A DNA stretch of 64,000 bases, from IMG/VR virus record IMGVR_UViG_3300042402_003952. One strand, given 5' to 3'. Of the stretch, positions 227 through 41,265 are shown in pieces. The notes beneath the pieces are model-generated. The model did not search any database. It was not told the DNA's origin and saw only the letters and a list, made by a program, of their open reading frames with translations. Made by a program: the position numbers and the translations under genes. This stretch comes from a virus. Taxonomy: Duplodnaviria > Caudoviricetes. Each line of letters opens with the position of its first letter. Position 1 is the stretch's first letter.

Positions 227-517
227 ATGAACGAAACACTCAATAAGAACCTCACACTCATTCAAGAGGTTGCTACAAAGGCACTTGAAGAACTCAAGAA
301 TTCCACAGAACGATTTGGTGGTGTAAATTATGCTGACCTACGAGTAGTGGATGTATGGGTGAAGTATAGTATTCACGAAGAAGATTTGGAGTATGGTGTG
401 TTGATTGAAGAATGCTCACCAACTGCTTATGATTTACAGGATTATATGTTAGAATACTTGAAAGATAATCTACCTAATAATTTGGGGTGGAGCATTTATG
501 TGGAGTTGGATTGGTAG
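227..517 (+). CDS. hypothetical phage protein
   Basis: 96-aa ORF, ATG start, same strand as neighbours. Confidence 0.7.
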   Translation: MNETLNKNLTLIQEVATKALEELKNSTERFGGVNYADLRVVDVWVKYSIHEEDLEYGVLIEECSPTAYDLQDYMLEYLKDNLPNNLGWSIYVELDW

Positions 518-525
518 GAAGTTCT

Positions 526-533
526 TATAAATA
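526..533 (+). promoter_or_regulatory. T4-type late promoter TATAAATA
   Basis: exact TATAAATA, intergenic. Confidence 0.65.
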
Positions 534-573
534 AGAGTGTCTGTTGAAATCGCAAATCTCTACGGACAAGATT

Positions 574-597
574 AGGTGCTCTTTTGGGCACCTTTTC
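574..597 (+). terminator. intrinsic terminator-like hairpin
   Basis: AGGTGCTC-TTTT-GGGCACCT followed by TTTT. Confidence 0.7.
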
Positions 598-610
598 TAT
601 TATGAACTTT

Positions 611-618
611 TATAAATA
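611..618 (+). promoter_or_regulatory. T4-type late promoter TATAAATA for the endonuclease gene
   Basis: exact TATAAATA 25 nt upstream of ATG 644. Confidence 0.75.
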
Positions 619-643
619 GTAATGCGATTTCAACAAGATAGAA

Positions 644-1465
644 ATGACTTACCAAAGTCCAAGAATATACACATACAAAATTACTTTTGAAGAAGTTCCA
701 TATTACTATTATGGAGTTCATAAGGAAAAATACTTCAACGAAGAATACTGGGGTTCTCCTACAACAAACAAGTGGTGTTGGGAACTTTATACTCCAAAGA
801 AACAAATACTTCAATTTTTTGATTATACGGATGAAGGTTGGTTGAAAGCACAAGAAATTGAAGAAAGATTGATAAAACCATTTTTCAATACTGATAAATG
901 GTGTTTGAATGAAAGTTGTGGTGGTAAAATATCTCTAAAAGTTTTGCGTGAAAGTGGAAATAAATGCTATGAACTTGGTTTAGGAGTTCATTCACTAACC
1001 AAAGAGCAAAGAAGTGAAAATGGTAAAAGAACTGGTAAAATTTCTGGAAAAAAAGGAGGTGAAAGAACATATGAACTTGGTGTTGGAGTTCACGGAAGAA
1101 CAAAAGAACAGATGAGTGAAGATGGGAAACAAGGAGGAAAAAAATCATACGAACTTAAAATAGGAATACACGGAAGAACTAAAGAACAGATGGTTGAAAA
1201 TGGTAGAAAGTGTGGAAATAGAACATATGAACTTGGAATTGGAATACACGGACAAAGCAAAGAAAAAATGACGGAAAATGGAAGAAGAGGTGGAAAAATA
1301 GGAGGTAAATTAGGTTCTAAAGAAGATAAAAGTAAAGCAGCAAAAAAGGCAAATTCTCAAAGGTGGATGTGTCTTGAAACTGGATATGTTTCAAACTCTG
1401 GAGGACTTTCTAACTACCAAAAGAAAAGAGATATAGACACCTCTAAACGAGTTAGAGTATCATAA
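644..1465 (+). CDS. free-standing GIY-YIG-like (Seg-type) homing endonuclease with C-terminal tandem repeats
   Basis: N-terminal RIYTYKITF..YYYYGVH..EEYWGS, E..LI and W-CLNE resemble phage GIY-YIG domains; four ~26-aa YELG.G.HG..KE...ENG repeats. Confidence 0.7.
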   Translation: MTYQSPRIYTYKITFEEVPYYYYGVHKEKYFNEEYWGSPTTNKWCWELYTPKKQILQFFDYTDEGWLKAQEIEERLIKPFFNTDKWCLNESCGGKISLKVLRESGNKCYELGLGVHSLTKEQRSENGKRTGKISGKKGGERTYELGVGVHGRTKEQMSEDGKQGGKKSYELKIGIHGRTKEQMVENGRKCGNRTYELGIGIHGQSKEKMTENGRRGGKIGGKLGSKEDKSKAAKKANSQRWMCLETGYVSNSGGLSNYQKKRDIDTSKRVRVS

Positions 1466-1523
1466 GGACACTTTACAAACTGGAACAAGGTGCCTTTACT
1501 GGGCACCTTTTTTATTGTATAAT
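1465..1523 (+). promoter_or_regulatory. early promoter element copy 1 (palindrome + internal hairpin + TATAAT)
   Basis: AGGACA-N10-TGGAAC, 31 nt, TATAAT; hairpin AGGTGCC/GGCACCT+T-run inside. Confidence 0.75.
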
Positions 1524-1545
1524 GACTCTATGATTAATCACTTAA

Positions 1546-1968
1546 ATGAACAACGATTGGAAACCAACAAACTGGGAACCAAGGAAGCAACATCCAGAAG
1601 AAGTCGCAAATGGACTTCGTAATGCTTTTAGACAAGCAATCAAAGATGGTGTGATGGATGCTACTCCTTACTTGAAACAAATGGAACCTAAAATTGAAAT
1701 TGACCCTTCACTTATTCTCAAATCTGGTGATTGTATTTACTATCACGGAATAAAGTATCAAAAAGTAGAACAACCCAAAAGTTTTGAAAATAAACTTTGG
1801 GACTTGCTAAAAACTAAACTGAATGATACTCTTGATTGTGGTGAACTGACTGATAGTGTTATGGATTTGATTAAAGACAATATTCCAGAACCTATGGAGA
1901 ATAAGTTTCATTCTGAAATCATTCAAGGTTATAATACGGCAATTAAAGAAGTAAAGGAGAGGTTCTGA
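1546..1968 (+). CDS. hypothetical protein (KYQKVE / GYN-x-x paralog family)
   Basis: 140-aa ORF directly after early promoter. Confidence 0.7.
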   Translation: MNNDWKPTNWEPRKQHPEEVANGLRNAFRQAIKDGVMDATPYLKQMEPKIEIDPSLILKSGDCIYYHGIKYQKVEQPKSFENKLWDLLKTKLNDTLDCGELTDSVMDLIKDNIPEPMENKFHSEIIQGYNTAIKEVKERF

Positions 1969-2429
1969 TGACTAAAGAAATTGAACTTCTAAAACAAGAA
2001 ATCAAAATGCTTCAATCTAAACTCTCATTTCTTGATGAACTGGAAAAAACAAAATCACCAGTAGAAGAAGCATACAAAGATTGGTGGGGACAATATCCTC
2101 AATTAGAAACTGATTCCGAGTATGATGAAATGAGGTGGCAGGGTTTCCAAGCAGGTTTTCATTTTGCTTATGAGGAGCAGGTAAAAGAAGATGATTGTAA
2201 TGATAAATCTCTTCCTAAAATGACCCTTGAAAACAAGGGTGAGTTTGAGGTTGTTTCTTATAATGATAAGATTTATTATCGTCTGGAATATTCAACTGCT
2301 ATTTTTTGGTATATGAGAAAAGAGGATGATAATGGTGCAATTCTCCTAAAACAGATTGCTGATGGTGAAACTCATCGTCTGCTTGAAGGTGTTTGGTTTA
2401 ATGATGTGAAGAAGGGGAAGTATGACTAA
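1968..2429 (+). CDS. hypothetical protein (KSP-EEAYK module)
   Basis: 153-aa ORF, stop/start overlap. Confidence 0.7.
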   Translation: MTKEIELLKQEIKMLQSKLSFLDELEKTKSPVEEAYKDWWGQYPQLETDSEYDEMRWQGFQAGFHFAYEEQVKEDDCNDKSLPKMTLENKGEFEVVSYNDKIYYRLEYSTAIFWYMRKEDDNGAILLKQIADGETHRLLEGVWFNDVKKGKYD

Positions 2430-2569
2430 CACTCAAAAAATTCAATCTGAAATTGATGAATTACATAAAAAGTTTGATGTTCTTCAATCACAATCTGCGA
2501 CTTTAAGTGAATTGAATAGTGTGCGAAGACAGTTAAATATTGCTTATGAAATGTTGAGGAAGAACTGAA

Positions 2570-2875
2570 ATGACTAACCCAGAAATCATCGTAGAACGAA
2601 AAAAATATGGAAGTTCTGCTATGGATTATACTATGAGAGTTTATCAAAAACTTGATGAAGAAACCATAATGATTGATGGTGTGAAGTATCAAAAAGTAGA
2701 AGAACCAAAACCACCGACACTTTATGAAATGTTTTACAATAAAGGTTTAGTATCAATTTGTGATACTGTTTGTGATATTGTTGCCGATTGGTTGCCTGAT
2801 GAAGATGATGGTGATGATAGATATGCTTGTGGTTGGAATGATTGTGTTGAAAAGTTGAAGTTGAGGTTAAAATGA
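2570..2875 (+). CDS. hypothetical protein (KYQKVE / GWNDC paralog family)
   Basis: 101-aa ORF, overlaps next gene. Confidence 0.7.
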   Translation: MTNPEIIVERKKYGSSAMDYTMRVYQKLDEETIMIDGVKYQKVEEPKPPTLYEMFYNKGLVSICDTVCDIVADWLPDEDDGDDRYACGWNDCVEKLKLRLK

Positions 2876-3450
2876 CTGAACCATTAAATCATAAACTTGA
2901 TATAAGTAAAATCAAAACACTCACAGATGTAAAGAATGTCTTTGAGTGCATGAATTTGTATTCTAATGCGAGTGAAGACAACGAACAGTATGAACTCATT
3001 AAAGAATACTTCACAATTCCAAACGAAGCACAAGAACTTGTCGGATTTAAACTACCACGCAAGTCATTAGAAGAAATCCAACAAGAATTTGATGAGAAGT
3101 TTGATAGATTGATTGATATAGTAAAAAATGATTATTGGATGTCTTATGATTGGGTGAGAGCAAAACAAAAGTATGAAGACTTCTGCAATCAACAAGATAG
3201 TGATTTTAAGTATGCCCGTGAGACTGGATTTTTCCCACCTAAACTTACAGGAACATCAGATTACTCTAAACTTACTGCGATTGGTAGTAGTAATATTACT
3301 TCCAGTTTTGTAATCAAAGAAGGTGGTAAAGAAGTTGGATATTATACCTTTGGTAATGGATATTTGAAGTATTGTATGGATAAGAAACCGACTGCGATTG
3401 TTCGTTTCTTTATGAATAAACTTTTAGATTTCCGTTGGGTGGACACTTGA
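2872..3450 (+). CDS. hypothetical protein
   Basis: 192-aa ORF, ATGA coupling. Confidence 0.7.
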   Translation: MTEPLNHKLDISKIKTLTDVKNVFECMNLYSNASEDNEQYELIKEYFTIPNEAQELVGFKLPRKSLEEIQQEFDEKFDRLIDIVKNDYWMSYDWVRAKQKYEDFCNQQDSDFKYARETGFFPPKLTGTSDYSKLTAIGSSNITSSFVIKEGGKEVGYYTFGNGYLKYCMDKKPTAIVRFFMNKLLDFRWVDT

Positions 3451-3498
3451 AGAACTGGCACAGGAGCATCCCACAGGTGCTCCTTTTGGTCTTATAAT
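3440..3498 (+). promoter_or_regulatory. early promoter element copy 2
   Basis: TGGACA-N10-TGGCAC, 31 nt (contains GGAGCA/TGCTCC hairpin+T-run), TATAAT. Confidence 0.8.
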
Positions 3499-3521
3499 AC
3501 TCTCATACACACAGACACCTG

Positions 3522-3713
3522 ATGATTGACTTCTCTCAAAAACGATTTGTTGATTTGGGTCAAACACTTTATACAGAGTGGTTGAAAACTTGTTCTAATA
3601 TGCAAAGTGCTACAGAACAGGAACGACGAGAAGTGTTCAAGTTTGGTGCTGAACTTGCATTTGAAGCAGCAGAAGAGTTTGCTAAAGTATTCCATAATCA
3701 AGAGGAGAACTGA
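3522..3713 (+). CDS. hypothetical protein
   Basis: 63-aa ORF after promoter. Confidence 0.65.
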   Translation: MIDFSQKRFVDLGQTLYTEWLKTCSNMQSATEQERREVFKFGAELAFEAAEEFAKVFHNQEEN

Positions 3714-3714
3714 A

Positions 3715-4041
3715 ATGACTATCAAAACAACTGAACTTCTCAAACTCTTTACCAAAGCAAAACAACTTGATTTAAGTGTTGAGGTTTATGAGGACAAAGA
3801 TGATGATTATGTAATTCGCATTTACGAAATGTTCCGTTCAGAAGGATTTGATGAAAAAATGTTCATCACTCAAAAGGGTGAGAGCAACTGGAATAAGGCA
3901 TCATACACTATTGATGGTATGATGGATATTCTTGATGAACAGTTGGAAGAAAAACGACAAGAGAAAATCAAAGAACAAAAACGACAAGAACTTCTTGCTC
4001 GTTTGACTGATGAAGAAAAGGAGTTGCTTGGAGTAAAATGA
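3715..4041 (+). CDS. hypothetical protein (start re-assigned to ATG 3715)
   Basis: MTIKTTELL start follows GAGGAG-like SD and the upstream stop. Confidence 0.65.
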   Translation: MTIKTTELLKLFTKAKQLDLSVEVYEDKDDDYVIRIYEMFRSEGFDEKMFITQKGESNWNKASYTIDGMMDILDEQLEEKRQEKIKEQKRQELLARLTDEEKELLGVK

Positions 4042-4223
4042 CTGAACGAGTAAAATTCAAAACTATCACAAGAGTGATTGACCCAAAGACACGCATTCAT
4101 TATCTTGACGGTGTTGATGAGGATGGATACCACTGGACTGCTCAAATGACCCACCAAGAAGAACCTTGGATTATCTACAAAGAAGTTTGGAGAAAAGACC
4201 CTCAACAACCTTATGACGTTTGA
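4038..4223 (+). CDS. hypothetical protein
   Basis: 61-aa coupled ORF. Confidence 0.6.
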   Translation: MTERVKFKTITRVIDPKTRIHYLDGVDEDGYHWTAQMTHQEEPWIIYKEVWRKDPQQPYDV

Positions 4224-4479
4224 AGAAATCCTAGAAGAATACGGACAGGAAGTATTAGACACATACTACGAACTGTTCCCAGATAAGAATGTATCAAAGT
4301 TTGGTGATAGGTGTTGTGGATTTGTTGGTGAGTATCAGGATTTTGTGTTAGACTGTTATCATTCAACTGGTAGTGATGAACTGGAAACACTTGAAGACTT
4401 TATGAATGGTGTATTTCAGGAGTATTATTACTACTGCGAAAAAACAGCAACAGGATTTGTATTTTATAATGAACGATGA
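4213..4479 (+). CDS. acidic hypothetical protein, distant resemblance to the ArdA-like ORF at 30940
   Basis: acidic; ends GFVF like 30940..31347. Confidence 0.55.
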   Translation: MTFEEILEEYGQEVLDTYYELFPDKNVSKFGDRCCGFVGEYQDFVLDCYHSTGSDELETLEDFMNGVFQEYYYYCEKTATGFVFYNER

Positions 4480-5192
4480 GTGATATAATCTACTACAAAA
4501 ATGGTGAGGAAACATTTCGTATTTCTCCTTCAACTGTTGGAACCAAATGTCCTGAAACTAAACTTGAAATCAAAATGACTGAACAAAAATTCACACTTGA
4601 ACTCACACTTGACGAACTTCACATGCTTGATAAGTATGTTGAATATTGTGAAGAAACAAAAGAGTTTTTTGAAAAACTCAAGAATGCTTATCCTAAACCA
4701 AAATCACCAGCAGAGGAAGCATACAAAAAATGTTATGGGGAATATCCTTCAGGAACTCCAAGTGAAAATGCGAGGTGGGATGCTTTTCTTCGTGGTTATC
4801 AATCAACACAACCACACGCAGTTCCAGTTGATGAACCCGATTATTATGATGAAGTAGAGTGGGATGAGAAGGATAATCCTCCATATCGTATCACTGATGA
4901 AGTTGTGAATAAAATGTTGAAAAAATGGGAAGAAAATCCACCAGACTTTTTGAAGTTTGAAATGGGCAAAACTCTGGAAGATTTGATTACTCGGTGGTGG
5001 TTGGATATTCATACAGTCCATAAAGATTGGGATGTTCCAACTTATGTTGATGACCTTATAGACCAAATTCAACTTTGGTTGCCTAAAGAACAGGATAGTT
5101 CTGGAACACAAGATGTTTCTGTGATTGACCTTGTGGATGGTTATAATGACTGCCTTGAAAAAATCAAATCCAAATTGAGGAACAAAAAATGA
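4476..5192 (+). CDS. mosaic hypothetical protein (KSP-EEAYK + GYNDC modules)
   Basis: 238-aa ORF sharing modules with 1968 and 2570 ORFs. Confidence 0.7.
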   Translation: MSDIIYYKNGEETFRISPSTVGTKCPETKLEIKMTEQKFTLELTLDELHMLDKYVEYCEETKEFFEKLKNAYPKPKSPAEEAYKKCYGEYPSGTPSENARWDAFLRGYQSTQPHAVPVDEPDYYDEVEWDEKDNPPYRITDEVVNKMLKKWEENPPDFLKFEMGKTLEDLITRWWLDIHTVHKDWDVPTYVDDLIDQIQLWLPKEQDSSGTQDVSVIDLVDGYNDCLEKIKSKLRNKK

Positions 5193-5389
5193 AACTTCAC
5201 GAACGACTTACGGAATGGTATTATACTCACGATGCCGTTCAATCTGGTGATGTAATCGCAAATGAGATTGTGAATGTCGTGAAGGAATGGTTGAAAAACT
5301 ATCATAAAGAAGACACCAACAAATACGATTTTGACTATTTCAGTGGATGGGCAGATTGTATTGATATTTTAGAGAGGGATTTACGATGA
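5189..5389 (+). CDS. hypothetical protein (GWADC paralog)
   Basis: 66-aa coupled ORF. Confidence 0.65.
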   Translation: MKLHERLTEWYYTHDAVQSGDVIANEIVNVVKEWLKNYHKEDTNKYDFDYFSGWADCIDILERDLR

Positions 5390-5577
5390 CTGAACGAAAT
5401 TTTACAAAAGAACTCCTATACTCATATTATAATGATATGGAAGGTGGAGATGATGTTGAGAGCATTGATTATCGTTCTTTGATACATATCATCACCGAAC
5501 TTCATAATAGGATTGAGAAACTTGAAAGGAAGTTGGAACAACAGGAGGAGTATGCTATGGAGCAAAATGAACAATGA
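5386..5577 (+). CDS. hypothetical protein
   Basis: 63-aa coupled ORF. Confidence 0.6.
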   Translation: MTERNFTKELLYSYYNDMEGGDDVESIDYRSLIHIITELHNRIEKLERKLEQQEEYAMEQNEQ

Positions 5578-5739
5578 GAATTGAAATCACTTACACACCA
5601 CATCCAACAAAAGGATATACTGCTACTATCTGGGATGGTCCAGACGGAATTGATGAAGACAGTTTTGTTTGCCGTTCTCTTGGTGAATGCTTTGAGCAGA
5701 TTGTGATGTGGAGAACACTTAACGCACAACAATACAAAG

Positions 5740-5922
5740 ATGAATGAAGACATCCAAATGCCCAATGGAGATTTCCTAAAGAACTATCCAGATGTGACTC
5801 GTGTTGAAGTGATTACTGATACTGGAAGAGAGTTTGTTCGGTATGAATGCTCTAATGTTCAGGTAAGTCTTCAGGACGACGGACAAACACTTAAAGTATT
5901 TCTCTTTACGACTTATGACTGA
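5740..5922 (+). CDS. hypothetical protein
   Basis: 60-aa ORF. Confidence 0.6.
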   Translation: MNEDIQMPNGDFLKNYPDVTRVEVITDTGREFVRYECSNVQVSLQDDGQTLKVFLFTTYD

Positions 5923-6097
5923 CGAACAAATTGATACGATGTTAAAAATGCATAGGTATCTTATTCATTGTGAGATGAGTTATTTGGTTGATAAAACATT
6001 GAACCAAGATGACCGTGCTGCCGAACTTCAAGAAAAATTCAACGATACAAAATGGGATGACTTTGCCAAATGGTTGAAGAAGATTAGAGATGAGTGA
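5915..6097 (+). CDS. hypothetical protein
   Basis: 60-aa coupled ORF. Confidence 0.6.
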   Translation: MTDEQIDTMLKMHRYLIHCEMSYLVDKTLNQDDRAAELQEKFNDTKWDDFAKWLKKIRDE

Positions 6098-6686
6098 TTA
6101 TTCCTGGTTAGAACCAATAGAGAAACGCACAAGAGAAATAAGAGAAGAAACCCAGAGAATCAAAGATGAAACTGAAAAAATGAAACAGGAAACTCATAAT
6201 CTTCCAGTTCCTGATGATGCCCCTTGGTTGAACTTATCACAAGAGGAAGTAGAAGAACTCCGCAACAAAAAACACGAACTCACTGAATACGGCAAACAGA
6301 GGTTGAAAGAACTTATGAGCAAACCTATTCAAGCAAAAGTATCTGAAGAAGATTACCAAAAAGTTCTAGAACTTATGAATAACCAAGAACCTTATGATGC
6401 TGATAAGTTTGCGGACGAAGAACGCAAACAACGCAGTGATACTGTTCTAGCACGATATAATGCTTTCTATAATGATGAGGTTTCTGGTATGCCCCACGGA
6501 ATGGTGTTAAGTATGGAACATCTCCAATGTATTACATTAGAATGTATGATTGATGCTCTACGTTGTGAGAATATGAATGTTGAATACAATGCTATTGCGA
6601 TTGATGACATTAAGAATTTGATTGAAGGATTGTATCGGCAGAGTAATGAGTTTCTTGAACGAGTGGGGAAGAACAATGAGCGATAA
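6090..6686 (+). CDS. hypothetical coiled-coil protein
   Basis: 198-aa ORF. Confidence 0.65.
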   Translation: MSDYSWLEPIEKRTREIREETQRIKDETEKMKQETHNLPVPDDAPWLNLSQEEVEELRNKKHELTEYGKQRLKELMSKPIQAKVSEEDYQKVLELMNNQEPYDADKFADEERKQRSDTVLARYNAFYNDEVSGMPHGMVLSMEHLQCITLECMIDALRCENMNVEYNAIAIDDIKNLIEGLYRQSNEFLERVGKNNER

Positions 6687-6978
6687 ACCATTCTATCGTT
6701 TTTTTGCGATTGATTATTTTGCCACTGGTGAGGGTAGATCGTATTGGTTGCAAATTTGTCGTAACTATCAACCAGTTGATGATAGAGATCGTCAGTTTGA
6801 ACGATTTGCAAAGTTTGTACCTGATGATCATTACTTGCGTGGTTGTGATGAACTTACAGAAGAAGAGTTCATGGAGAAGTATGCTAAACTTATTCCAGAA
6901 CATGTAAAAGTTCAAGTACATCGTCGTGATCAACCTGCATTCACATGGCAAGCACACCTACACGTTAATTACTCATGA
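6676..6978 (+). CDS. hypothetical protein (start re-assigned to ATG 6676)
   Basis: MSDKPFYRFF start avoids a long overlap. Confidence 0.6.
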   Translation: MSDKPFYRFFAIDYFATGEGRSYWLQICRNYQPVDDRDRQFERFAKFVPDDHYLRGCDELTEEEFMEKYAKLIPEHVKVQVHRRDQPAFTWQAHLHVNYS

Positions 6979-7241
6979 ACATCAAATTCAAAGGACATCA
7001 AGAAACCGACCGAGAAGTAGAACTTTCACAACAAGAACTCTTCCAACTCTTTGAGATTATGCGTAAAGAGTTTGTTGAACACATTACTTATGCTAGGTTC
7101 CGTAATTGTTATTCTCCAACTCCAACGGAGAAAAACATTATAGATTTTTGCAATTCTCATTCGGTTGATGTGGAATACGACAAAGACCGTATCGCATTCT
7201 TTTCTGCTATTCTTGATAACCTTAAGAACCCATACCAATGA
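6975..7241 (+). CDS. hypothetical protein
   Basis: 88-aa coupled ORF. Confidence 0.6.
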   Translation: MNIKFKGHQETDREVELSQQELFQLFEIMRKEFVEHITYARFRNCYSPTPTEKNIIDFCNSHSVDVEYDKDRIAFFSAILDNLKNPYQ

Positions 7242-7456
7242 AACTCTGTAAAGATTGTAAGTATTATCGTAAGGATTGGTTGGGTCATCTATTTGGAATG
7301 GGACACCGACATGATACTTGTGTATCACCAAATACTTCCACAAATCTAGTAACTGGTAATGAGAGCAGGTTCTGTGATATGCTCCGTTCTAAATCTTGGG
7401 AATCACTTGATTACTCTTGTGGTCCTGATGGTAGATTTTTTGAGGAAAAGAAATGA
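7238..7456 (+). CDS. small Cys-rich hypothetical protein
   Basis: CKDCKY..C..C..CGPDGRFFE pattern. Confidence 0.65.
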   Translation: MKLCKDCKYYRKDWLGHLFGMGHRHDTCVSPNTSTNLVTGNESRFCDMLRSKSWESLDYSCGPDGRFFEEKK

Positions 7457-7635
7457 AATGGATTAAGAATCCAGACGAGATTGTACTGGAGGATGTGAAG
7501 ATGGTTCATTATGAGACAATGGAAGAAGGTCGTGCTGTGTGGTTGGGAATCTATCTTAACAACGGTCAAATATTTCACTTAAACATTGGTGGGGATAATC
7601 TTTATATTAATTATAGTGAGGAGACACCTGACTAA
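7453..7635 (+). CDS. hypothetical protein
   Basis: 60-aa coupled ORF. Confidence 0.6.
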   Translation: MKWIKNPDEIVLEDVKMVHYETMEEGRAVWLGIYLNNGQIFHLNIGGDNLYINYSEETPD

Positions 7636-7678
7636 CTGGCACAAGGATACTCCAGAAAGGACTTGGATGCCCTATAAT
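7621..7678 (+). promoter_or_regulatory. early promoter element copy 3
   Basis: GAGACA-N10-TGGCAC, 30 nt, TATAAT. Confidence 0.8.
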
Positions 7679-7700
7679 GGTTTTATAAACCCAGAGACCA

Positions 7701-8000
7701 ATGAACCCCCTACAAAGATACAAGAACTACACCCGCAAGCAGTATAATCGTTATTGTTATGATGGTGATTTTGAACCTCACTTCAGGTGGAACCCATTTG
7801 ATACAAATAACGATTGGGTATATGATAATGAGAAGTGGAGACACTTTATCTGGGGATTTCAAAATATAGCAAATGCTTGGGAGGCGTGGTCTTATTGGAT
7901 GAGAGATAAGAAGTATTCTTATAAACTTCCTTATGCGATGTGGAGTGAGATGAATGATGGATGGATGTATATGTATGAGTATTCTTGGGCGAAGAAATGA
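7701..8000 (+). CDS. Trp-rich hypothetical protein
   Basis: 99-aa ORF after promoter. Confidence 0.65.
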   Translation: MNPLQRYKNYTRKQYNRYCYDGDFEPHFRWNPFDTNNDWVYDNEKWRHFIWGFQNIANAWEAWSYWMRDKKYSYKLPYAMWSEMNDGWMYMYEYSWAKK

Positions 8001-8338
8001 ACTTTCATAAATTAATCATATCAAATAGATTTCTTCGTTACACTTCATTCTGGTGGTGGTACAGGTTAATCTCACATCAAGGATTTCGTTTTGATGATTA
8101 TCATGTATGGGGAGAGTTTTGGAGTTCTCTAAATGGTGGGTGGTTAGATATGAATTACCAATGGGAGTTTGAGAAATTCTGGGGTAAGGGAGCAAAACCC
8201 GAAAGGATTGTTCTACCAAAAAAAGATTTTGATGCCCTAGTAGAAAGACTCAACCAACCACCAGACCCTAAAGTAGTTGAAAGATTAAAAGAGATTATGA
8301 AAAAACCGGCACCTTGGGATAATGACAGAGAAATCTAA
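7997..8338 (+). CDS. hypothetical protein
   Basis: MNFHKL start couples with upstream stop. Confidence 0.6.
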   Translation: MNFHKLIISNRFLRYTSFWWWYRLISHQGFRFDDYHVWGEFWSSLNGGWLDMNYQWEFEKFWGKGAKPERIVLPKKDFDALVERLNQPPDPKVVERLKEIMKKPAPWDNDREI

Positions 8339-8498
8339 AATCTTCTACAACATCTGGAAGTGTGCTTATCAGCGCCGATATTTGTATAGGGGAACACCAA
8401 GAGAACAGAGAGAACATACTACAATTCGTATGTGCCTAGATATGAAAGACGTAAAGTTCTACCAGTTTGATTCAGAAAAACCGCGATACTTAACATGA
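8322..8498 (+). CDS. small hypothetical protein (below ORF-track cutoff)
   Basis: MTEKSKIFYNIWKCAYQRRY...KPRYLT, 58 aa, hand translated. Confidence 0.6.
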   Translation: MTEKSKIFYNIWKCAYQRRYLYRGTPREQREHTTIRMCLDMKDVKFYQFDSEKPRYLT

Positions 8499-8881
8499 TA
8501 TTCTCAAGACCTCTCCTAGGAACAAATACCAATAAAGTTAAAATGAGTTGGTGGGATTATTGGGTTGGTCACTGCTGGATGACTGGATGGCAAAGTATTC
8601 GCAACAATTTCATTACTTGGATGGATTTGGTATGGTTTGAAGACAATCAAAAACAATATACTCTTCTTAAAGATGATGTTCCATTTGAGCAGTGTTATAT
8701 TGAATTCTGGTTTGGATTAAATGATGACGATGTGTATCCTAAACATTTCTTGGAAAGTTTGCTTCAAATGGTTGATGATATTGAAACTGGTAAAGAAAAA
8801 GTATATCCACTTGATGAGGATTTCTTTGATAGAATGAAAGAACTTACTGATGGAGTAGAACTTAATGATGACGATCTTTGA
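8495..8881 (+). CDS. hypothetical protein
   Basis: 128-aa ORF. Confidence 0.65.
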   Translation: MIFSRPLLGTNTNKVKMSWWDYWVGHCWMTGWQSIRNNFITWMDLVWFEDNQKQYTLLKDDVPFEQCYIEFWFGLNDDDVYPKHFLESLLQMVDDIETGKEKVYPLDEDFFDRMKELTDGVELNDDDL

Positions 8882-9059
8882 TTTGGTACACGATGAACGT
8901 AGATATGGTTGGGTCGTAGATAAACGTTATGATTGGATCAATATGCTCTCAAGAATGAGAGATAATAATCCACAACGATTTGAAGAGTTTCAATACACCA
9001 ATGCTACGATTTATCATCACCTAGATAGAGTGCAACAAGAACAAAGTATCTACGATTAA
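8865..9059 (+). CDS. hypothetical protein
   Basis: 64-aa ORF. Confidence 0.6.
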   Translation: MMTIFDLVHDERRYGWVVDKRYDWINMLSRMRDNNPQRFEEFQYTNATIYHHLDRVQQEQSIYD

Positions 9060-9063
9060 CATT

Positions 9064-9447
9064 ATGGGACTTTATGATGAAATTCGTTCTTCTTACAATT
9101 TGGGGGAACAATTTACCAATGTAGAAATGCAAACCAAAGGTCTTGCTTGTGCGATGTGTCGCTATTGGATTTCTCCTGATGGATGTTTGTATGAATTGAC
9201 TTATAGAGAAACTCACGACTTTGCGGAAATTAGAGAAGATGATGAACGTTATGACTCTAAAAGATTATTTTTGAATTTTGAGTGGATTCCTACAGGAAAG
9301 CATGGTAAAGTAGAACCGTGTTATGTGACTGATTATGTTGAAGTTTATCCTTCATTATGGGAAGGGAAGTGGGAAGATTGGCCACGATGTATGATACATT
9401 TCAAACACGGAAAAGTACAAGACTTTGAGGACATTACAGGGCGATGA
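9064..9447 (+). CDS. phage hypothetical protein (MGL.D.I...QTK.L.C family)
   Basis: 127-aa ORF with a motif recalled from phage hypotheticals. Confidence 0.65.
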   Translation: MGLYDEIRSSYNLGEQFTNVEMQTKGLACAMCRYWISPDGCLYELTYRETHDFAEIREDDERYDSKRLFLNFEWIPTGKHGKVEPCYVTDYVEVYPSLWEGKWEDWPRCMIHFKHGKVQDFEDITGR

Positions 9448-9761
9448 TTAGTACAGAGTTGTTTCCATATGAGAATCATCCATATCGTTTAGAGTTTGGA
9501 GAAAAGAAAAATCCTACGATCTGTTTCTTTTCTTGTGAACAGCACCTTGACAAATACCTAGAAAGGTATAAACTAGATAAGAGAACTCTTAAAATTGATT
9601 ATCGCGATGGAAAACCCATTGACACCAGTAAAAAACGTAAGGGAAGTGTGGAACAAAAACCTAAACCAAAAAGTAAAGGAAGTTCTGGTACAAGTAAAGG
9701 ACGAAAACCCAGCGTGGATTCCTCTGGAAACACTTCTCGCACTACAAAGCGTAAAAAATGA
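9444..9761 (+). CDS. hypothetical protein with Lys/Ser-rich tail
   Basis: 105-aa coupled ORF. Confidence 0.65.
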   Translation: MISTELFPYENHPYRLEFGEKKNPTICFFSCEQHLDKYLERYKLDKRTLKIDYRDGKPIDTSKKRKGSVEQKPKPKSKGSSGTSKGRKPSVDSSGNTSRTTKRKK

Positions 9762-9899
9762 ACGAGCAAACTAAACTTATTTTTGCTCTAATGCAAATTG
9801 ATAATCTCACAAGTCTTCTAGAAGGAAATGAATATCAAGATTTTTTATACAGTAAATTAATTTCCGTAAGAATTGAACTGCAGAGGCAACTGAATCATT

Positions 9900-10115
9900 A
9901 TGGAAAAACAACTAATTGACGACGCATTTTATGTGGAAGAAAAAAAGTATGGACTATGGCAATCTCACTATCCTGATGGTAAAGGTATTATCACATCACT
10001 TACTGAAGAACAGTGTGTGAGATCAACACGCTGGTATTTAAAATCAAAACAAGAAGGCGAGTTTGACAAACTTGCTGAAAAAACTTATTCTGGAGAAGTT
10101 GGAGGAAAACTTTAA
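9900..10115 (+). CDS. conserved cyanophage-type hypothetical protein
   Basis: 71-aa ORF ending YSGEVGGKL. Confidence 0.65.
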   Translation: MEKQLIDDAFYVEEKKYGLWQSHYPDGKGIITSLTEEQCVRSTRWYLKSKQEGEFDKLAEKTYSGEVGGKL

Positions 10116-10569
10116 TGGCACTACGCACTTTTACTGACAAGAATGGCAATACTTGGGAGTGGAATGAAACGCCCGAAGTTCTGGAAGTTCTTAAAAACTT
10201 TCATGCAGGAGATTACGAAGGACCTCTCTACGCACCACATCCTGACTTGAGCAATGAAAACAAGACTAAACACTAATCAACAAATGTGGGCAAATATCTT
10301 TAAATGTTCTGTTGAAAGGTCTAACATTTATTTGAAAGAAAAAGACCTTGATAGGCACGCAAGAGAACATACCACAGTTGTATTAGCACTTCAAAAAGGA
10401 GAACAGTTTTGGAAGGAACTCCTGTAGAACAACCTTATCACGTTCTTGATCATACGACTCCTTGGTACGAATGGATGTCATATCTTGAGTGTTGTCAGAG
10501 TTTGAAGATAAAACCTAGCATGAATAGATTTCTCGCTTATAATAGATACTATAAGTCTGTTATAAAGGA

Positions 10570-10785
10570 ATGAATTTTTTACGCTGGTTGTTTTCTCCTA
10601 CAGATAAAGAAATGTGTGAAGAATCTAGCATTTATTCAATTATTCTTGATTTACAAGAAAGAATTGAAACTCTGGAAGCAGAGAATATTGAAACCACAAA
10701 TACTCTTTATGAACTCATGAATTCTATTGAAGCAGTTGATGCACGTATAGATATTCTGACTTTAGAAAAGTGGAAAGATAAATAA
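10570..10785 (+). CDS. coiled-coil hypothetical protein
   Basis: 71-aa ORF, AAGGA SD. Confidence 0.65.
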   Translation: MNFLRWLFSPTDKEMCEESSIYSIILDLQERIETLEAENIETTNTLYELMNSIEAVDARIDILTLEKWKDK

Positions 10786-10821
10786 TGATGCCTGAGTTGG
10801 TGGTTCTTTTCAGGTTGGGAT

Positions 10822-10848
10822 AAAGCACCTTAAGTTAAGGGTGCTTTT
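10822..10848 (+). terminator. intrinsic terminator-like hairpin
   Basis: AAAGCACC-TTAAGTTAAG-GGTGCTTT(T). Confidence 0.7.
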
Positions 10849-10852
10849 CCTG

Positions 10853-10860
10853 TATAAATA
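10853..10860 (+). promoter_or_regulatory. T4-type late promoter TATAAATA
   Basis: exact motif 27 nt upstream of ATG 10888. Confidence 0.75.
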
Positions 10861-10887
10861 TTAATAACCACCAACTTAAGAGCAGTT

Positions 10888-11484
10888 ATGAAAGGAGTAA
10901 TTTATTGCTACCATTGTATTCCTACGGGGAAGAAATACATTGGACAAACAAAATATGAAAGAAGGAGAAAAGAACACCATAATTATATGGTGAAAAATGG
11001 TTCTAAAAGAAAGTTTTATAACGCAATTAAAAAATATGGATGGGAAAATTTCATATATGGTATAATTGAAGAATGTGATAGTAATACATTACTTCAAAGA
11101 GAAATGTACTATATTAAAAAATATGGCACTTTTAAGTGTGGATATAACAGTACATTGGGTGGTGATGGTAAATCTGGATGGAAACACACTGAAGAGACTA
11201 AGGGAAAAATTGCTAAATCAAACACTGGGAAAAAACGCTCTGTTGAGCAAAGAAAACTTTTAAGTGAGATACATAAAAATAAACCACTTTCTTTAGAGCA
11301 CAGAAAATCTATAAGCGACGCACATAAAAAAACAGGATTTGTTCCTCCTTCACATAGGAATACGAAATGGTGGAATGATGGACAAATTTCTAAAAGATCT
11401 GTAGAATGTCCAGGTTATAATTGGAGTCCTGGAAGATTGCCCTTAGGTCCTTACTTTAATAGAAAAAAATGTACGAAGAATTAG
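10888..11484 (+). CDS. GIY-YIG homing endonuclease with NUMOD3-like DNA-binding repeats (Seg-like)
   Basis: GVIYC..KKYIGQT, FYNAIKKYG, E.YYI, GYN.T.GG, HTEETK.KI. Confidence 0.9.
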   Translation: MKGVIYCYHCIPTGKKYIGQTKYERRRKEHHNYMVKNGSKRKFYNAIKKYGWENFIYGIIEECDSNTLLQREMYYIKKYGTFKCGYNSTLGGDGKSGWKHTEETKGKIAKSNTGKKRSVEQRKLLSEIHKNKPLSLEHRKSISDAHKKTGFVPPSHRNTKWWNDGQISKRSVECPGYNWSPGRLPLGPYFNRKKCTKN

Positions 11485-11651
11485 ATGATTTTGAAAAAGC
11501 ACTTGCACACTTTGGAACAAGAGTAGATATTATTATCGCACTAGAAATGGGAGGAAAACTTGATGCTGACTCTGCTTACAAAAATATTAAATCGGAACTC
11601 AAAGAACTCAAGCGAATCCGCAAACAACTCAAAAAAGATGCGGATTTGTGA
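11469..11651 (+). CDS. conserved cyanophage hypothetical protein
   Basis: 60-aa ORF, L..FGTRV.II.ALEMGGK. Confidence 0.65.
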   Translation: MYEELDDFEKALAHFGTRVDIIIALEMGGKLDADSAYKNIKSELKELKRIRKQLKKDADL

Positions 11652-11766
11652 TAAATGTGGTGAGACTAAACCACTTGACAGAGACCATTATCAGGTTGTA
11701 AAATATTTCCGTGATGGTTTCTCCTATTACTGTCACGACTGCTCTAAACCTAAACCCAGAGATTAA
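11638..11766 (+). CDS. small zinc-finger-like protein
   Basis: MRICDKCGE...YYCHDC, two CxxC. Confidence 0.6.
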   Translation: MRICDKCGETKPLDRDHYQVVKYFRDGFSYYCHDCSKPKPRD

Positions 11767-11768
11767 TT

Positions 11769-12419
11769 ATGACTTTTGATTATAAAAAGTATTCACTTGA
11801 AAATCTTGAGAACTGGATGCACGATGCGATGTCTTCTGGTGAAGCAACACCACAGGAGATTTATGATGTGATTGTTAGTGTGGTTAAGGAAAATTATTAC
11901 ATATACAAGCAAAAAACATCTCAAGCATATGAACTTCTTGCTCTTCTAAATGGTAATGGGCAGTCATATGAAGATGTAGTAAAGGAAAAAGAATACTATG
12001 AACCTTCTATGCCACCTTGGGGACATAGTGACCTTGAGTATGGACTTGCTAATTCATTCTTAACTCAAGATCGCAATAGTAATTTTCCAAATGAAAATAC
12101 TGTATGCGATAAAGATGACCCTTCACCTGAATGTAAAGGTGCTTGGAATGATTTTTGGCAAGAACACTATTATCCAGAAGAACATAAACTTCATGTAACT
12201 GAAGATGGAGACATTTATTCAGTAAAAGATAAAGTGGTGAAATGGCGACTTCCCGTTCAAGTAGATGGACTTTCTGGTGATTGTTTTGTAGAGTTCCCTG
12301 ATGATTTGCTAGAAGCAGCAAATCTAAAAGAAGGAGAAACTGTGGAATGGATTGACCGTGGAGACGGTAGTTTTGAATTGAGAAAAGTAACTAAACCCCT
12401 AGCAATGGATGAGTGTTGA
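11769..12419 (+). CDS. hypothetical protein with C-terminal AbrB/MazE/SpoVT-like domain
   Basis: FVEFPDDLLEAANLKEGETVEW...GSFELRK. Confidence 0.7.
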   Translation: MTFDYKKYSLENLENWMHDAMSSGEATPQEIYDVIVSVVKENYYIYKQKTSQAYELLALLNGNGQSYEDVVKEKEYYEPSMPPWGHSDLEYGLANSFLTQDRNSNFPNENTVCDKDDPSPECKGAWNDFWQEHYYPEEHKLHVTEDGDIYSVKDKVVKWRLPVQVDGLSGDCFVEFPDDLLEAANLKEGETVEWIDRGDGSFELRKVTKPLAMDEC

Positions 12420-12649: not shown

Positions 12650-12932
12650 GTTTTGTAACGACAGTATAAATACAATCTTAAGAAACATCACATTTGACTT
12701 AAATACTGTTAGGATAAGAACATAATTGCAAAAGACCTATGACTTTACCATCAAGAAAAACAAACACTCTTACCGATGCAGAGTTTGATGAAATGATGGC
12801 ACTTAAAAATGCAATTAATTATAATCCTGCGGCAGTACACCACAAAAAGCAAGAAGAATTTACTGCATATCTGGTAAGAAGTTTGAGAGAACGTGGAGGT
12901 TGATAAATAACAGAAGGTATTTTTGTAGATAA

Positions 12933-21905: not shown

Positions 21906-22117
21906 GTATTCATCAAGTCAAGGAGGTTTCAATGGTGTTCAAAAATCAAAACCCAATAGATGATTACGAAGACTTTGCTCTTAAATATCTTGGTATTGAC
22001 CTTGAAGATTATGTCGAATTTATTGGGGACTATGAAGTTCAAGATGAGGAACTAGAATACTCCCTGTCTGCTTGACTTATAGACCGCTGCAGTTCGGTCT
22101 CTAAATATAAACTGTTC

Positions 22118-22188
22118 GGGGAATTAGTTAAACGGTATAACGGGTGCTTTGCAAGCACTTATTAGCAGTTCGATTCTGCTATTCTCCA
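22118..22188 (+). tRNA. trnA: tRNA-Ala(UGC)
   Basis: acceptor GGGGAAT/ATTCTCC with G3:U70; D stem GTTA/TAAC; anticodon loop TTTGCAA; T loop TTCGATT; no encoded CCA. Confidence 0.92.
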
Positions 22189-39092: not shown

Positions 39093-39209
39093 TTGATTGA
39101 GTTTACCACTAAAAGGTATATAGTGGTAAATGCTATTTAAGAAAAGGTTAATATTGAGAATTACTATGATTAGAGATTGATAAATTGATATAATGGTAGT
39201 GTTATATTG

Positions 39210-39321
39210 TTAATACCTTAAAGAATGTGAGTTCTTATGATTAATACCTTAAAGAATGTAGTTAATACCTTAAGAAACCTTAAAGAATGTAGTTAATACC
39301 TTAAGAAACCTTAAAGAATGT
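39210..39321. repeat. iteron-like tandem repeats (ACCTTAA(A)GAA x6)
   Basis: ACCTTAA at 39215, 39246, 39267, 39277, 39298, 39308. Confidence 0.9.
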
Positions 39322-39347
39322 GAGTTCTTGTCGCGGTCTTGGCCTGC

Positions 39348-39405
39348 ATTATAACACATCAGCGCTGTTTTGTCAATACCCCCAGGACACTCCAAAAATC
39401 GGCAC
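39348..39405 (-). promoter_or_regulatory. early promoter element copy 19, reverse orientation, perfect sigma70 consensus
   Basis: minus strand TTGACA-17-TATAAT; palindrome AGGACA-N10-CGGCAC 30 nt from the -10 box. Confidence 0.85.
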
Positions 39406-39918
39406 ACCACTATAAAATTATAAACACTCCCAGACACGTCTATATGCCCCTGCAAGGCACTTATAAACTCATTTAGGGGTCAGAGTACCGAAGTGCTGGT
39501 TTTTGTGATTAAATCAGCATAGGATAGAACTACAAAAACCAGCAAGAACTTGTATAAATAAACATAACAATTCAATTCATAGTGCGAATTTGAACTTTCC
39601 TACGGGGTCAAAAGTCAAATTCTACAGAAGCGAAAAGTTAATAAAACATTTGATAATTTATAGAATCAAAGTTCTCATAGGGTCTTTATAAAAACCCTCT
39701 CTCCAAAGTCAATGAAATAAAACCATTGATGGAGAAAACAAATACTGAAAGAGATTATCAAAACTGAATACTCACCGAAACCCAATAAAAGCACATAATT
39801 CCTGCTTTAGATTCTTATGCGAATTTCTAAAGATGTCAGGAAGGTTTTATACTATCAAAAATTATTTAATTATCAAGGTTTTATCAGAACTCTTTTATTC
39901 TATCACATAATCTTCTAG

Positions 39919-39947
39919 TTGACAAGTACTCATAATGTCGCTAGAGT
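39919..39947 (+). promoter_or_regulatory. sigma70-type promoter
   Basis: TTGACA-17-TAGAGT. Confidence 0.6.
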
Positions 39948-40044
39948 ATGTTTGTTGCTGTTAAAGAGAAATAATAACATCAAGAACTTAAAGACCCGTC
40001 CGAAGGACAACACGACCGAAGGGAGTGTTTCTATAAGGCACTGG

Positions 40045-40073
40045 TTGACAATTATAATAAGACCTGATAGAAT
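40045..40073 (+). promoter_or_regulatory. sigma70-type promoter directly upstream of the 72-bp array
   Basis: TTGACA-17-TAGAAT. Confidence 0.75.
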
Positions 40074-40096
40074 ATAACAATCAGAACAAACAAAAG

Positions 40097-40339
40097 TCAT
40101 TCGTGATTAGATAAGATTCGTATCATTATAAAAGACACAAGCACTAATGATAAGAATGAATCACAAAGTCATTCGTGATTAGATAAGATTCGTATAGAAA
40201 AATCATAATACTTAAGACTGGCAATAAAGAACTCATAAGTTCATTCGTGATTAGATAAGATTCGTATAGAAAATTGATAATACAACACAACTGTGAGATT
40301 ATAATCACAAAGTCATTCGTGATTAGATAAGATTCGTAT
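40097..40339. repeat. CRISPR-like array: four identical 27-nt repeats, 45-nt spacers, 72-bp period
   Basis: TCATTCGTGATTAGATAAGATTCGTAT at 40097, 40169, 40241, 40313. Confidence 0.9.
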
Positions 40340-40423
40340 AGAGATTCGATCTTATCAGAATCTCAAAGAAATCATAAGAAGAAAATATTCGTTTATATCT
40401 CAAGTTCGTTGTGGGGCAAATAC

Positions 40424-40452
40424 TTGACGGGCACTGAAAGGTCTGGTAGAAT
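40424..40452 (+). promoter_or_regulatory. sigma70-type promoter
   Basis: TTGACG-17-TAGAAT upstream of ORF 40493. Confidence 0.7.
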
Positions 40453-40492
40453 TAACCAGTAGAGTTTATTCGTTCTTTCGGTTCTTTAACTT

Positions 40493-40660
40493 ATGGCAAC
40501 TTCTTACCTTAAAGCACAAAGGAATAAGTATCGTATCACTCTGGAATTAAACGTGAATGAAGATTTTAATCCTCATCAGATTAACTGGAAGAAACTATTC
40601 GGGTTAGACAGTAAAGAATCAGTGAAGAGTTATGTAGAAGATCTCTCCGTGCCCTGGTAA
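40493..40660 (+). CDS. 55-aa conserved cyanophage-type protein (below track cutoff)
   Basis: hand translated MATSYLKAQRNKYRITLELNV.EDFNPHQINWKKLF... Confidence 0.65.
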   Translation: MATSYLKAQRNKYRITLELNVNEDFNPHQINWKKLFGLDSKESVKSYVEDLSVPW

Positions 40661-41265
40661 TTAAGAATACAATCCAACATTCCTCTGTTGTATTATACTT
40701 TCGTGGAGTAAGAAACATCGCCTGATAGATGTTTCGTTTATTATTATTACTTTGTCTGATTGTTTTTATCTTTAATGGCAACTTAATTCTTTATACTTAT
40801 TATTATTCGTCGTTAATTGGCGGCAGTTAGTATAAAGAATAGTCAGTTCTTATTAAATAAGTAGAGTTTTTTCGTGCTTAAGTAATAAGAACTTCGTTGT
40901 TTTATTCTAATAACACAGTGATTTGGTGGCAGTTAGTATAAACAACACGAATAACTAATACTTATTCGTTGTCAGTTGTTTATTCGTTATAGCAGTTATT
41001 TTATTTTATTTGTTATTGTTTATATCGGGCGTTGCCCCCGTATATAAAAACGCCCCACTACCCTAACCTACACTGTATGTCTTTTTCGACCTATCTATCA
41101 CTCTCATAAAAAAAAAATTCCATAAAAAAAAATGTCTCCAAAAAGAAAAGTAAATTGCCACGGATGGGGAATCTTCGGAGGTAAGCACAAGAAAAAGAAA
41201 AGTTGCGCAACAGGTATCTTCAGAACTCCTGCTCAAAAAAGAGCATCCTCAAAAAGAAAGAAGAG

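Follow-up and report, generated by a model that had tools for sequence, protein, structure and literature searches.

Homing endonucleases need near-silence in order to persist in a phage, and T4 secures it by combining a hairpin with a late promoter. The locus described here raises the question of whether a leader standing before such a gene in a cyanophage silences it in that manner, through two complementary arms on one transcript, or whether it also gives rise to a small RNA that acts on the nuclease message. The locus lies in a 64,000-nucleotide stretch of viral DNA (IMG/VR record IMGVR_UViG_3300042402_003952), the whole of which is referred to below as the window. A first-pass annotation of the sequence had proposed that a promoter placed before an antisense arm makes a short antitoxin-like RNA, separated by a terminator from a second promoter and from the sense arm of a GIY-YIG nuclease message.

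Two leader sites and the genes behind them

The source of the window is a T4-like cyanomyovirus, and the same DNA is present in lake metagenomes. Among isolates the only near match was Synechococcus phage DSL-LC03, with 4% of the query covered, and an exact-protein match with identical gene context was obtained to five JGI contigs. Two leader sites were located in the window, at 526-646 and 10777-10890, the module that they share being about 115 bases long.

At site 1 the plus strand carries an outer box resembling a late promoter and putatively active as one (P1, TATAAATA, 526..533), followed by a 5′ arm (538..554) that is hypervariable in its core, conserved at its GCA end and complementary to the mRNA leader. 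The arm runs into a small 5′ hairpin (SL1, 539..567) in which 539-544 pairs with 562-567 and the core of the 5′ arm occupies the loop. Behind it come an intrinsic terminator (T1, 574..599), whose hairpin at 574-593 consists of an 8-bp GC stem with a tetraloop and is succeeded by TTTTCT, an inner late promoter (P2, TATAAATA, 611..618) nested in the loop of a long-range helix, and a 3′ arm (623..640) that forms nearly the entire leader of the P2 transcript and spans the Shine-Dalgarno position. The homing-endonuclease-like gene of 273 aa (644..1465) starts with the ATG at 644. The boxes, terminator hairpin, arms and start codon all lie where the first-pass annotation had placed them, and TGTTGAAATCGCA at 542-554 is, as it had stated, the perfect 13-nt complement of TGCGATTTCAACA at 623-635.

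The same order of elements recurs on the plus strand at site 2, as had been claimed, except that the outer box there (P1, 10777..10784) reads GATAAATA and not TATAAATA; it overlaps the stop codon of ORF 10570..10785. It is followed by a 5′ arm (10790..10805), the first 6 nt of which pair with 10810-10815 as SL1, by T1 with its T-run (10822..10852; terminator hairpin at 10822-10847), by P2 (TATAAATA, 10853..10860) and by a 3′ arm (10866..10883) that stops 4 nt short of the AUG. The arms of the two sites had been called unrelated, which is true of the arm sequences and not of the leader overall: the site-2 leader scores 66 bits against the covariance model described below and is therefore a member of the same family despite its differing arms and gene.

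Regarding the genes, the GIY-YIG assignment stands for site 2 and is much less certain for site 1. The site-2 gene (10888..11484, 198 aa, ATG at 10888) is a GIY-YIG + NUMOD3 homing endonuclease by Pfam (PF01541 and PF07460) and matches phrog_314 with an E-value of 1e-33. The match of ORF 644..1465 to this homing-endonuclease family is weak (E 4e-5), no Pfam family was matched by it, no hit was found in a profile search of PDB sequences, and its profile-profile comparison with canonical GIY-YIG neighbours gave no significance. Since Pfam gave none and the phrog_314 match is weak, its GIY-YIG assignment rests on motif resemblance, namely a GIY-YIG-like IY...YYYG motif at the N-terminus; the C-terminus carries repeated GxH..TKEQ modules, and the AlphaFold model of the N-terminal 110 aa has a pLDDT of 39. 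The last 34 aa of the protein (1360-1462) are 65% identical to the end of S-PM2 p181, an ORF that adjoins the F-CphI endonuclease gene between psbA and psbD, and this common tail looks like a DNA-binding segment. The controlled genes are homing endonucleases at site 1 (phrog_314), at site 2 (GIY-YIG + NUMOD3) and in related modules (HNH and others), with at least five endonuclease types, HNH among them, being preceded by the module.

The 3′ end of the site-1 cassette (1466..1545, plus strand) is also organized. A GGACACTT-like stretch after the endonuclease stop codon is followed by a second terminator (T2, 1487-1509), the loop of which holds a −35 hexamer, and then by TATAAT, giving a sigma-70-like promoter (TTTACT-17-TATAAT, 1495-1523); the unit is conserved after most of the related endonuclease genes and would allow early transcription to resume at the phage gene that comes next. 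A weak match to the leader model was also noted at 1442-1548 (29 bits, E 0.008), where a short helix (1459-1464 / 1529-1534) overlaps the endonuclease stop, encloses T2 and the sigma-70-like −10 element and lies 12 nt upstream of the ATG of ORF 1546; the masking logic may be faintly echoed here for the downstream gene, or the match may be due to chance. On the other flank, a copy of ORF 227..517 with about 96% identity occurs in river metatranscriptome contigs from six runs, with another gene immediately behind it whose start overlaps its stop, so a close relative exists without a cassette at this position.

Pairing of the arms across the module family

All relatives of ORF 644 are preceded by the same leader, at the 42 IMG/VR loci at which they were found and in the isolates S-SRM01 and B23, which hold six and three copies of the module, respectively. 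A search made independently of P1, asking for a late-promoter box and a leader able to pair upstream, yielded 42 distinct modules, to which inspection by eye added a 43rd locus (L035); the alignment to the covariance model comprised 50 modules, including IMG/VR cyanophage contigs. The covariance model recovered zero modules from the well-studied phages Syn9, P-HM2 and S-PM2. The weak covariance match in Syn9 consisted of box, terminator and box with the arms absent, and the F-CphI gene of S-PM2 likewise has a terminator and TATAAATA without arms. No match of the leader was obtained by blastn against isolate phages, and none at E<=1 in an Rfam scan of 400-12000.

Perfect 13-nt inverted repeats with a loop of 10-150 nt occur twice in the window and at least once in 30 of 100 local shuffles. 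A lone repeat of this kind is hence not rare, and the case is carried by the recurrence and covariation seen among 50 modules, by which the arrangement is not a product of chance and the recurrence of the family is real. The other repeat of the window (39494-39506 / 39532-39544) lies just upstream of TATAAATA at 39553. It falls within an ORF-poor 2 kb (39100-41100) that holds four copies of a repeat with a 72-nt period (40089-40355) and an array with a 31-nt period (39205-39329), has no Rfam match and could be an origin-like or regulatory region.

In the predicted fold of the read-through RNA of site 1 (−42.2 kcal/mol, z −6.9), positions 538-554 pair with 623-640 in a helix which ends 4 nt upstream of the AUG and encloses both the terminator and the second box; folding predicts a long-range helix at site 2 too. 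The RNA initiated at P2 is by itself unstructured. The mean energy of the arm duplex is −21.9 kcal/mol for cognate and −9.8 kcal/mol for non-cognate arms.

A search of related endonuclease leaders for covarying arms had been suggested as a check of the original proposal, and the arms do covary. Across the 50 modules double changes were seen in all 11 pairs of the long helix, with 99.6% of cells paired; the covariation score was 0.741, compared with 0.24 in shuffles (none of 500 reaching the observed value) and 0.10-0.135 in slid controls. In 20 closely related modules the non-coding positions are frozen, with variation confined to the cores of the arms, the loop of T1 and the initial base of P1. 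The RNA duplex of the plus strand is more stable than that of the minus strand in 30 of 30 modules, with 32 G:U pairs. As the arms vary and yet covary, and as they pair better on the plus strand, an RNA helix appears to be under selection, and the 32 G:U pairs together with the consistent plus-strand preference exclude a purely DNA-level role and a minus-strand RNA. By these folding models, the pairing of the arms masks the translation start of the homing-endonuclease genes on read-through RNA and is a selected RNA interaction. The rapid, compensated change of the arms could stem, however, from template switching between the inverted repeats and not from selection. Within a genome the arms are no more divergent than between genomes, and one contig carries two modules with the same arms; given that arms within a genome are not more orthogonal, there is no sign of selection for separate specificities in trans.

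The outer box, the 5′ hairpin and the predicted short RNA

The family consensus of P1 is NATAAATA, with a minority form xCTAAATA, and NATAAATA is the reported late promoter of cyanophages (PMC2984593). In all 43 modules detected independently of P1, xxTAAATA precedes the 5′ arm at a fixed distance. The box is also the left edge of conservation in the module: the preceding bases are random, and information rises from about zero to its maximum exactly at P1. Of 42 modules, 41 have TATAAATA as the inner box. P1 frequently departs further from the consensus than P2, for which reason the short RNA may be a minority species, and in several loci P1 touches or overlaps the stop codon of the gene before it. 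The ends of the long helix match the transcript starts predicted 6 nt after P1 and P2; in 30 of 30 modules the 3′ arm opens with the predicted P2 start.

The distribution of NATAAATA in the window is equally skewed, with 14 occurrences on the plus strand and none on the minus strand. Nine of the 14 stand 16-27 nt before an ATG, and this suggests that stray late-promoter boxes are strongly avoided in the window. Both P1 boxes are among the few NATAAATA outside promoter position and are the sole ones of these that are then followed by a terminator. The plus-strand boxes include those at 12902, 13762, 16469, 19097, 20000, 43735 and 58577. The last of these (TATAAATA) succeeds a single ORF of 4164 codons (46081-58575) and is itself followed by two more large ORFs. 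A TCTAAATA at 22100 lies 10 nt upstream of a tRNA-Ala (22118-22188).

The hairpins on either side of the 5′-arm core are conserved as structures. The stem of SL1 joins the opening 5-7 nt of the 5′ arm to a segment immediately upstream of T1 and occurs in 12 sequence types with compensatory changes (permutation p<1e-4 in a per-sequence test). This test was used in place of a column-wise count on the model-fitted alignment, whose weak outcome (69% paired) reflects misalignment of the 3′ strand from one subfamily to another. The T1 stem covaries in 9 of its 10 pairs. In the fold of the predicted short RNA, the loop of SL1 carries the variable core of the 5′ arm, and cofolding of this RNA with the P2 leader gave a ddG of −12.1 kcal/mol at site 1 and of about −12 to −14 kcal/mol overall.

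At the level of sequence, then, an antisense segment complementary to the translation-initiation region of its target, and kept so by covariation, is flanked by its own promoter-like box (P1, 43 of 43 modules) and its own terminator (T1). A late RNA of about 60 nt running from P1 to T1 is a plausible prediction from these signals; at site 1 the hypothetical species would span 539..599 on the plus strand, as deduced from P1, SL1 and T1, and would consist of SL1 and the terminator hairpin. The fixed distance of P1 and the covariation of SL1 and of T1 favour such an RNA, and a trans-acting small late RNA is the best explanation for the additional conserved parts, at odds of about even. The stronger proposition, that each cassette encodes its own late RNA of about 60 nt, the loop of which nucleates a duplex at the 5′ end of the cognate mRNA and restrains that message in trans, is put forward tentatively, its chances falling slightly short of even. 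A P1-SL1-T1 covariance model run on the window, S-SRM01 and B23 recovered full modules only, and free-standing P1-SL1-T1 units were not found in these three. In the literature searched on such leaders, no description was found of the outer box, the 5′ hairpin or the terminator within the loop.

Mechanism, alternatives and known systems

The explanation that best accounts for the data overall, and which we hold to have an even chance of being right, combines a mask on read-through RNA, a late mRNA from P2 and an antisense-like RNA from P1 to T1; the same estimate covers the view of the leader as a portable control unit travelling with the homing-endonuclease genes of freshwater T4-like cyanophages. 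T1 would halt most of the transcription coming from upstream, and any RNA reading through would hold both arms and fold into a helix of 15-17 bp over the ribosome-binding region, leaving the nuclease untranslated. P2 lies in the loop, and its mRNA would begin at the first base of the 3′ arm; owing to this start, the late mRNA would lack the 5′ arm, be unstructured and be translatable. P1 most likely fires late and, with T1, would release the RNA of about 60 nt made up of SL1 and the terminator hairpin. The SL1 loop would offer the 5′-arm core to the P2 mRNA at its 5′ end; from there pairing would extend across the whole 20-nt leader, and translation would be damped in trans so that the nuclease is kept low. 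What is observed comprises the elements and their conservation, the covariation of T1, SL1 and the long helix, and the plus-strand polarity; from these we infer that P1 and P2 are active promoters, that T1 terminates, that the short RNA exists and in which direction it acts. Should both promoters fire at the same time, the benefit of repressing one's own mRNA is not obvious.

A leader acting in cis alone would be a mask of T4 type, provided with a nested late promoter and with a terminator for insulation, P1 yielding no functional RNA; in a variant, P1 would be kept as the border of the cassette, as a supply of stop codons or for protein binding. SL1 would be a folding intermediate that brings the arm core to the 3′ arm within one molecule. 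The arms and P2 fit the established scheme exactly (PMC2988022), and hairpins of this sort are on record for cyanophage-like endonucleases (PMC2677866). The confinement of P1-SL1-T1 to full modules, the lack of arm orthogonality within genomes and the contact of P1 with upstream stop codons in several loci also agree with such a leader. It would, however, not account for the unchanging TAAATA, which in 43 of 43 modules keeps its spacing from the arm and has random bases before it, nor for both ends of the helix being the predicted starts of two transcripts, nor for the maintenance of SL1 by compensatory changes; the concentration of plus-strand NATAAATA in promoter position, with none on the minus strand, speaks against it as well. 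Taken jointly, the two versions form a serious possibility which we would nonetheless not expect to be correct.

The opposite extreme, originally proposed for this locus, is that the terminator separates the RNAs fully and the arms meet only as small RNA and mRNA with no intramolecular role. T1 is indeed strong-looking and conserved, and the short RNA is predicted to pair with the leader, but no intrinsic terminator is complete, the RNA that reads through must form a very stable intramolecular helix, and intramolecular masking is the known T4-type means of silencing such genes; with a 273-aa nuclease as the target and no type I toxin peptide, this reading is improbable. Still further from likely is an element acting as DNA, whether as a cruciform, as a site of recombination or cleavage, or as terminal repeats bounding a mobile unit. 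The thought is invited by a perfect 13-bp inverted repeat within a cassette that is mobile, and template switching can homogenise inverted repeats, yet the G:U pairs would be A-C mismatches on the other strand, the plus-strand RNA is uniformly the stabler, it is pairing and not arm sequence that is conserved, and the repeat flanks the terminator and P2 only, with the endonuclease gene outside. The order of promoter, hairpin, terminator and gene is also similar to that of an attenuator or riboswitch-like leader, in which P1 would be the true nuclease promoter and SL1 with T1 a regulated terminator. SL1 and the T1 stem have no bases in common, which leaves no antiterminator alternative; RNA reading through from P1 would be translationally masked, a consensus late promoter (P2) follows directly after T1 and Rfam offers no match, so that we give this reading very little credence.

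The module shows that a whole lineage of lake cyanophages governs many unrelated nucleases through a single standard leader that can be exchanged between them, with three extra conserved parts that the T4 model does not need. If the small RNA is made, the module would offer a clear example, open to test, of RNA control in trans among T4-like phages, with six copies available in the cultured S-SRM01; it would stand for a widespread family of dedicated trans-acting antisense RNAs in these phages, for a new route by which selfish nucleases limit their own cost, and for a natural set of short covarying RNA-RNA pairs usable as specific translational switches. If no small RNA is made, the invariance of the outer promoter box needs another explanation.

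Among known antisense systems, the closest in layout are the c4 RNA of P1/P7, which acts on icd-ant, and the CI RNA of satellite P4. These leader-encoded RNAs lie upstream on the strand of their target, are complementary to its ribosome-site region through inverted repeats, act both on their own transcript and in trans, and shift specificity by paired substitutions. They are processed from the operon transcript and control immunity genes. The module resembles them in its predicted short RNA, upstream and on the same strand, in its inverted-repeat complementarity and in its paired substitutions, and differs in that the predicted RNA has its own promoter and terminator and a nuclease as target; there is no sequence relation.

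A second comparison is with IS10 RNA-OUT/RNA-IN and with the RNAs of type I toxin-antitoxin systems such as hok/sok and tisB/istR-1. Here too the loop of a hairpin would meet the 5′ end of the mRNA of a harmful selfish gene and cover its ribosome site. RNA-OUT and Sok, however, are transcribed from the opposite strand across their target, and type I toxins are small membrane peptides, whereas the module RNA is predicted only and would come from the same strand. The targets being nucleases of 198 and 273 aa, the module is not a member of type I toxin-antitoxin systems; the term antitoxin-like, used at first, is apt as a mechanistic analogy and not as a class. Opposite-strand overlap, the mark of true cis-antisense RNAs such as RNA-OUT, Sok and CfrI of S-PM2, is absent, since all signals and both arms lie on the plus strand and the complementarity is that of an inverted repeat. 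According to a review of 2010, no trans-acting antisense RNA had been functionally characterised in T4-like phages (PMC3014915).

The promoter-early stem-loop units (PeSLs) of T4-like phages are early promoters found in hyperplastic regions of the RB49/phi1, PST and nt-1 phage pairs (PMC2839356, PMC4122927). The stem-loop/terminator at 1466-1545 is PeSL-like in having a sigma-70-type promoter built into it, and T1 with P2 resembles the same design with a late promoter. PeSLs have no flanking complementary arms, and their likeness to the module is one of design.

The nearest relatives in mechanism are the translational masks of T4 type. Masks with a nested late promoter precede I-TevI, I-TevII, I-TevIII, segB and mobE of Aeromonas phage Aeh1, and the T4 genes e, soc and 49 are under similar masks; long transcripts hide the ribosome site, and the late promoter within the hairpin gives a translatable RNA (PMC2988022, PMC3014915). 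The first-pass annotation had set the module apart from this single-hairpin scheme, a contrast that was overdrawn, as the same arms form a T4-type mask on read-through RNA. As in T4, the predicted helix sequesters the ribosome-binding region on transcripts started upstream, a TATAAATA late promoter in the hairpin would yield a shorter RNA without the 5′ arm, and the genes controlled are homing endonucleases. In contrast to T4, the loop of about 68 nt contains a conserved intrinsic terminator, a second late-promoter box stands before the 5′ arm, the start of that arm also forms a conserved local hairpin, and the module is one homologous portable unit common to unrelated endonuclease types.

TATAAATA hairpins with conserved complementary motifs were described by Dassa et al. 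(2009) for the leaders of cyanophage-like free-standing endonucleases at metagenomic loci, where the stem precedes the start codon and was read as a mobE-like mask (PMC2677866). The kinds of gene and of phage are the same and the stem likewise has a late-promoter element inside, whereas a terminator, an upstream promoter and a small RNA go unmentioned in its text (PMC2677866); the element may be the same as the module or related to it. In view of the T4 scheme and of these hairpins (PMC2677866), the arms and the inner late promoter are not new. The basic logic of the leader is the known one of T4, and the module is a more elaborate, portable variant of it.
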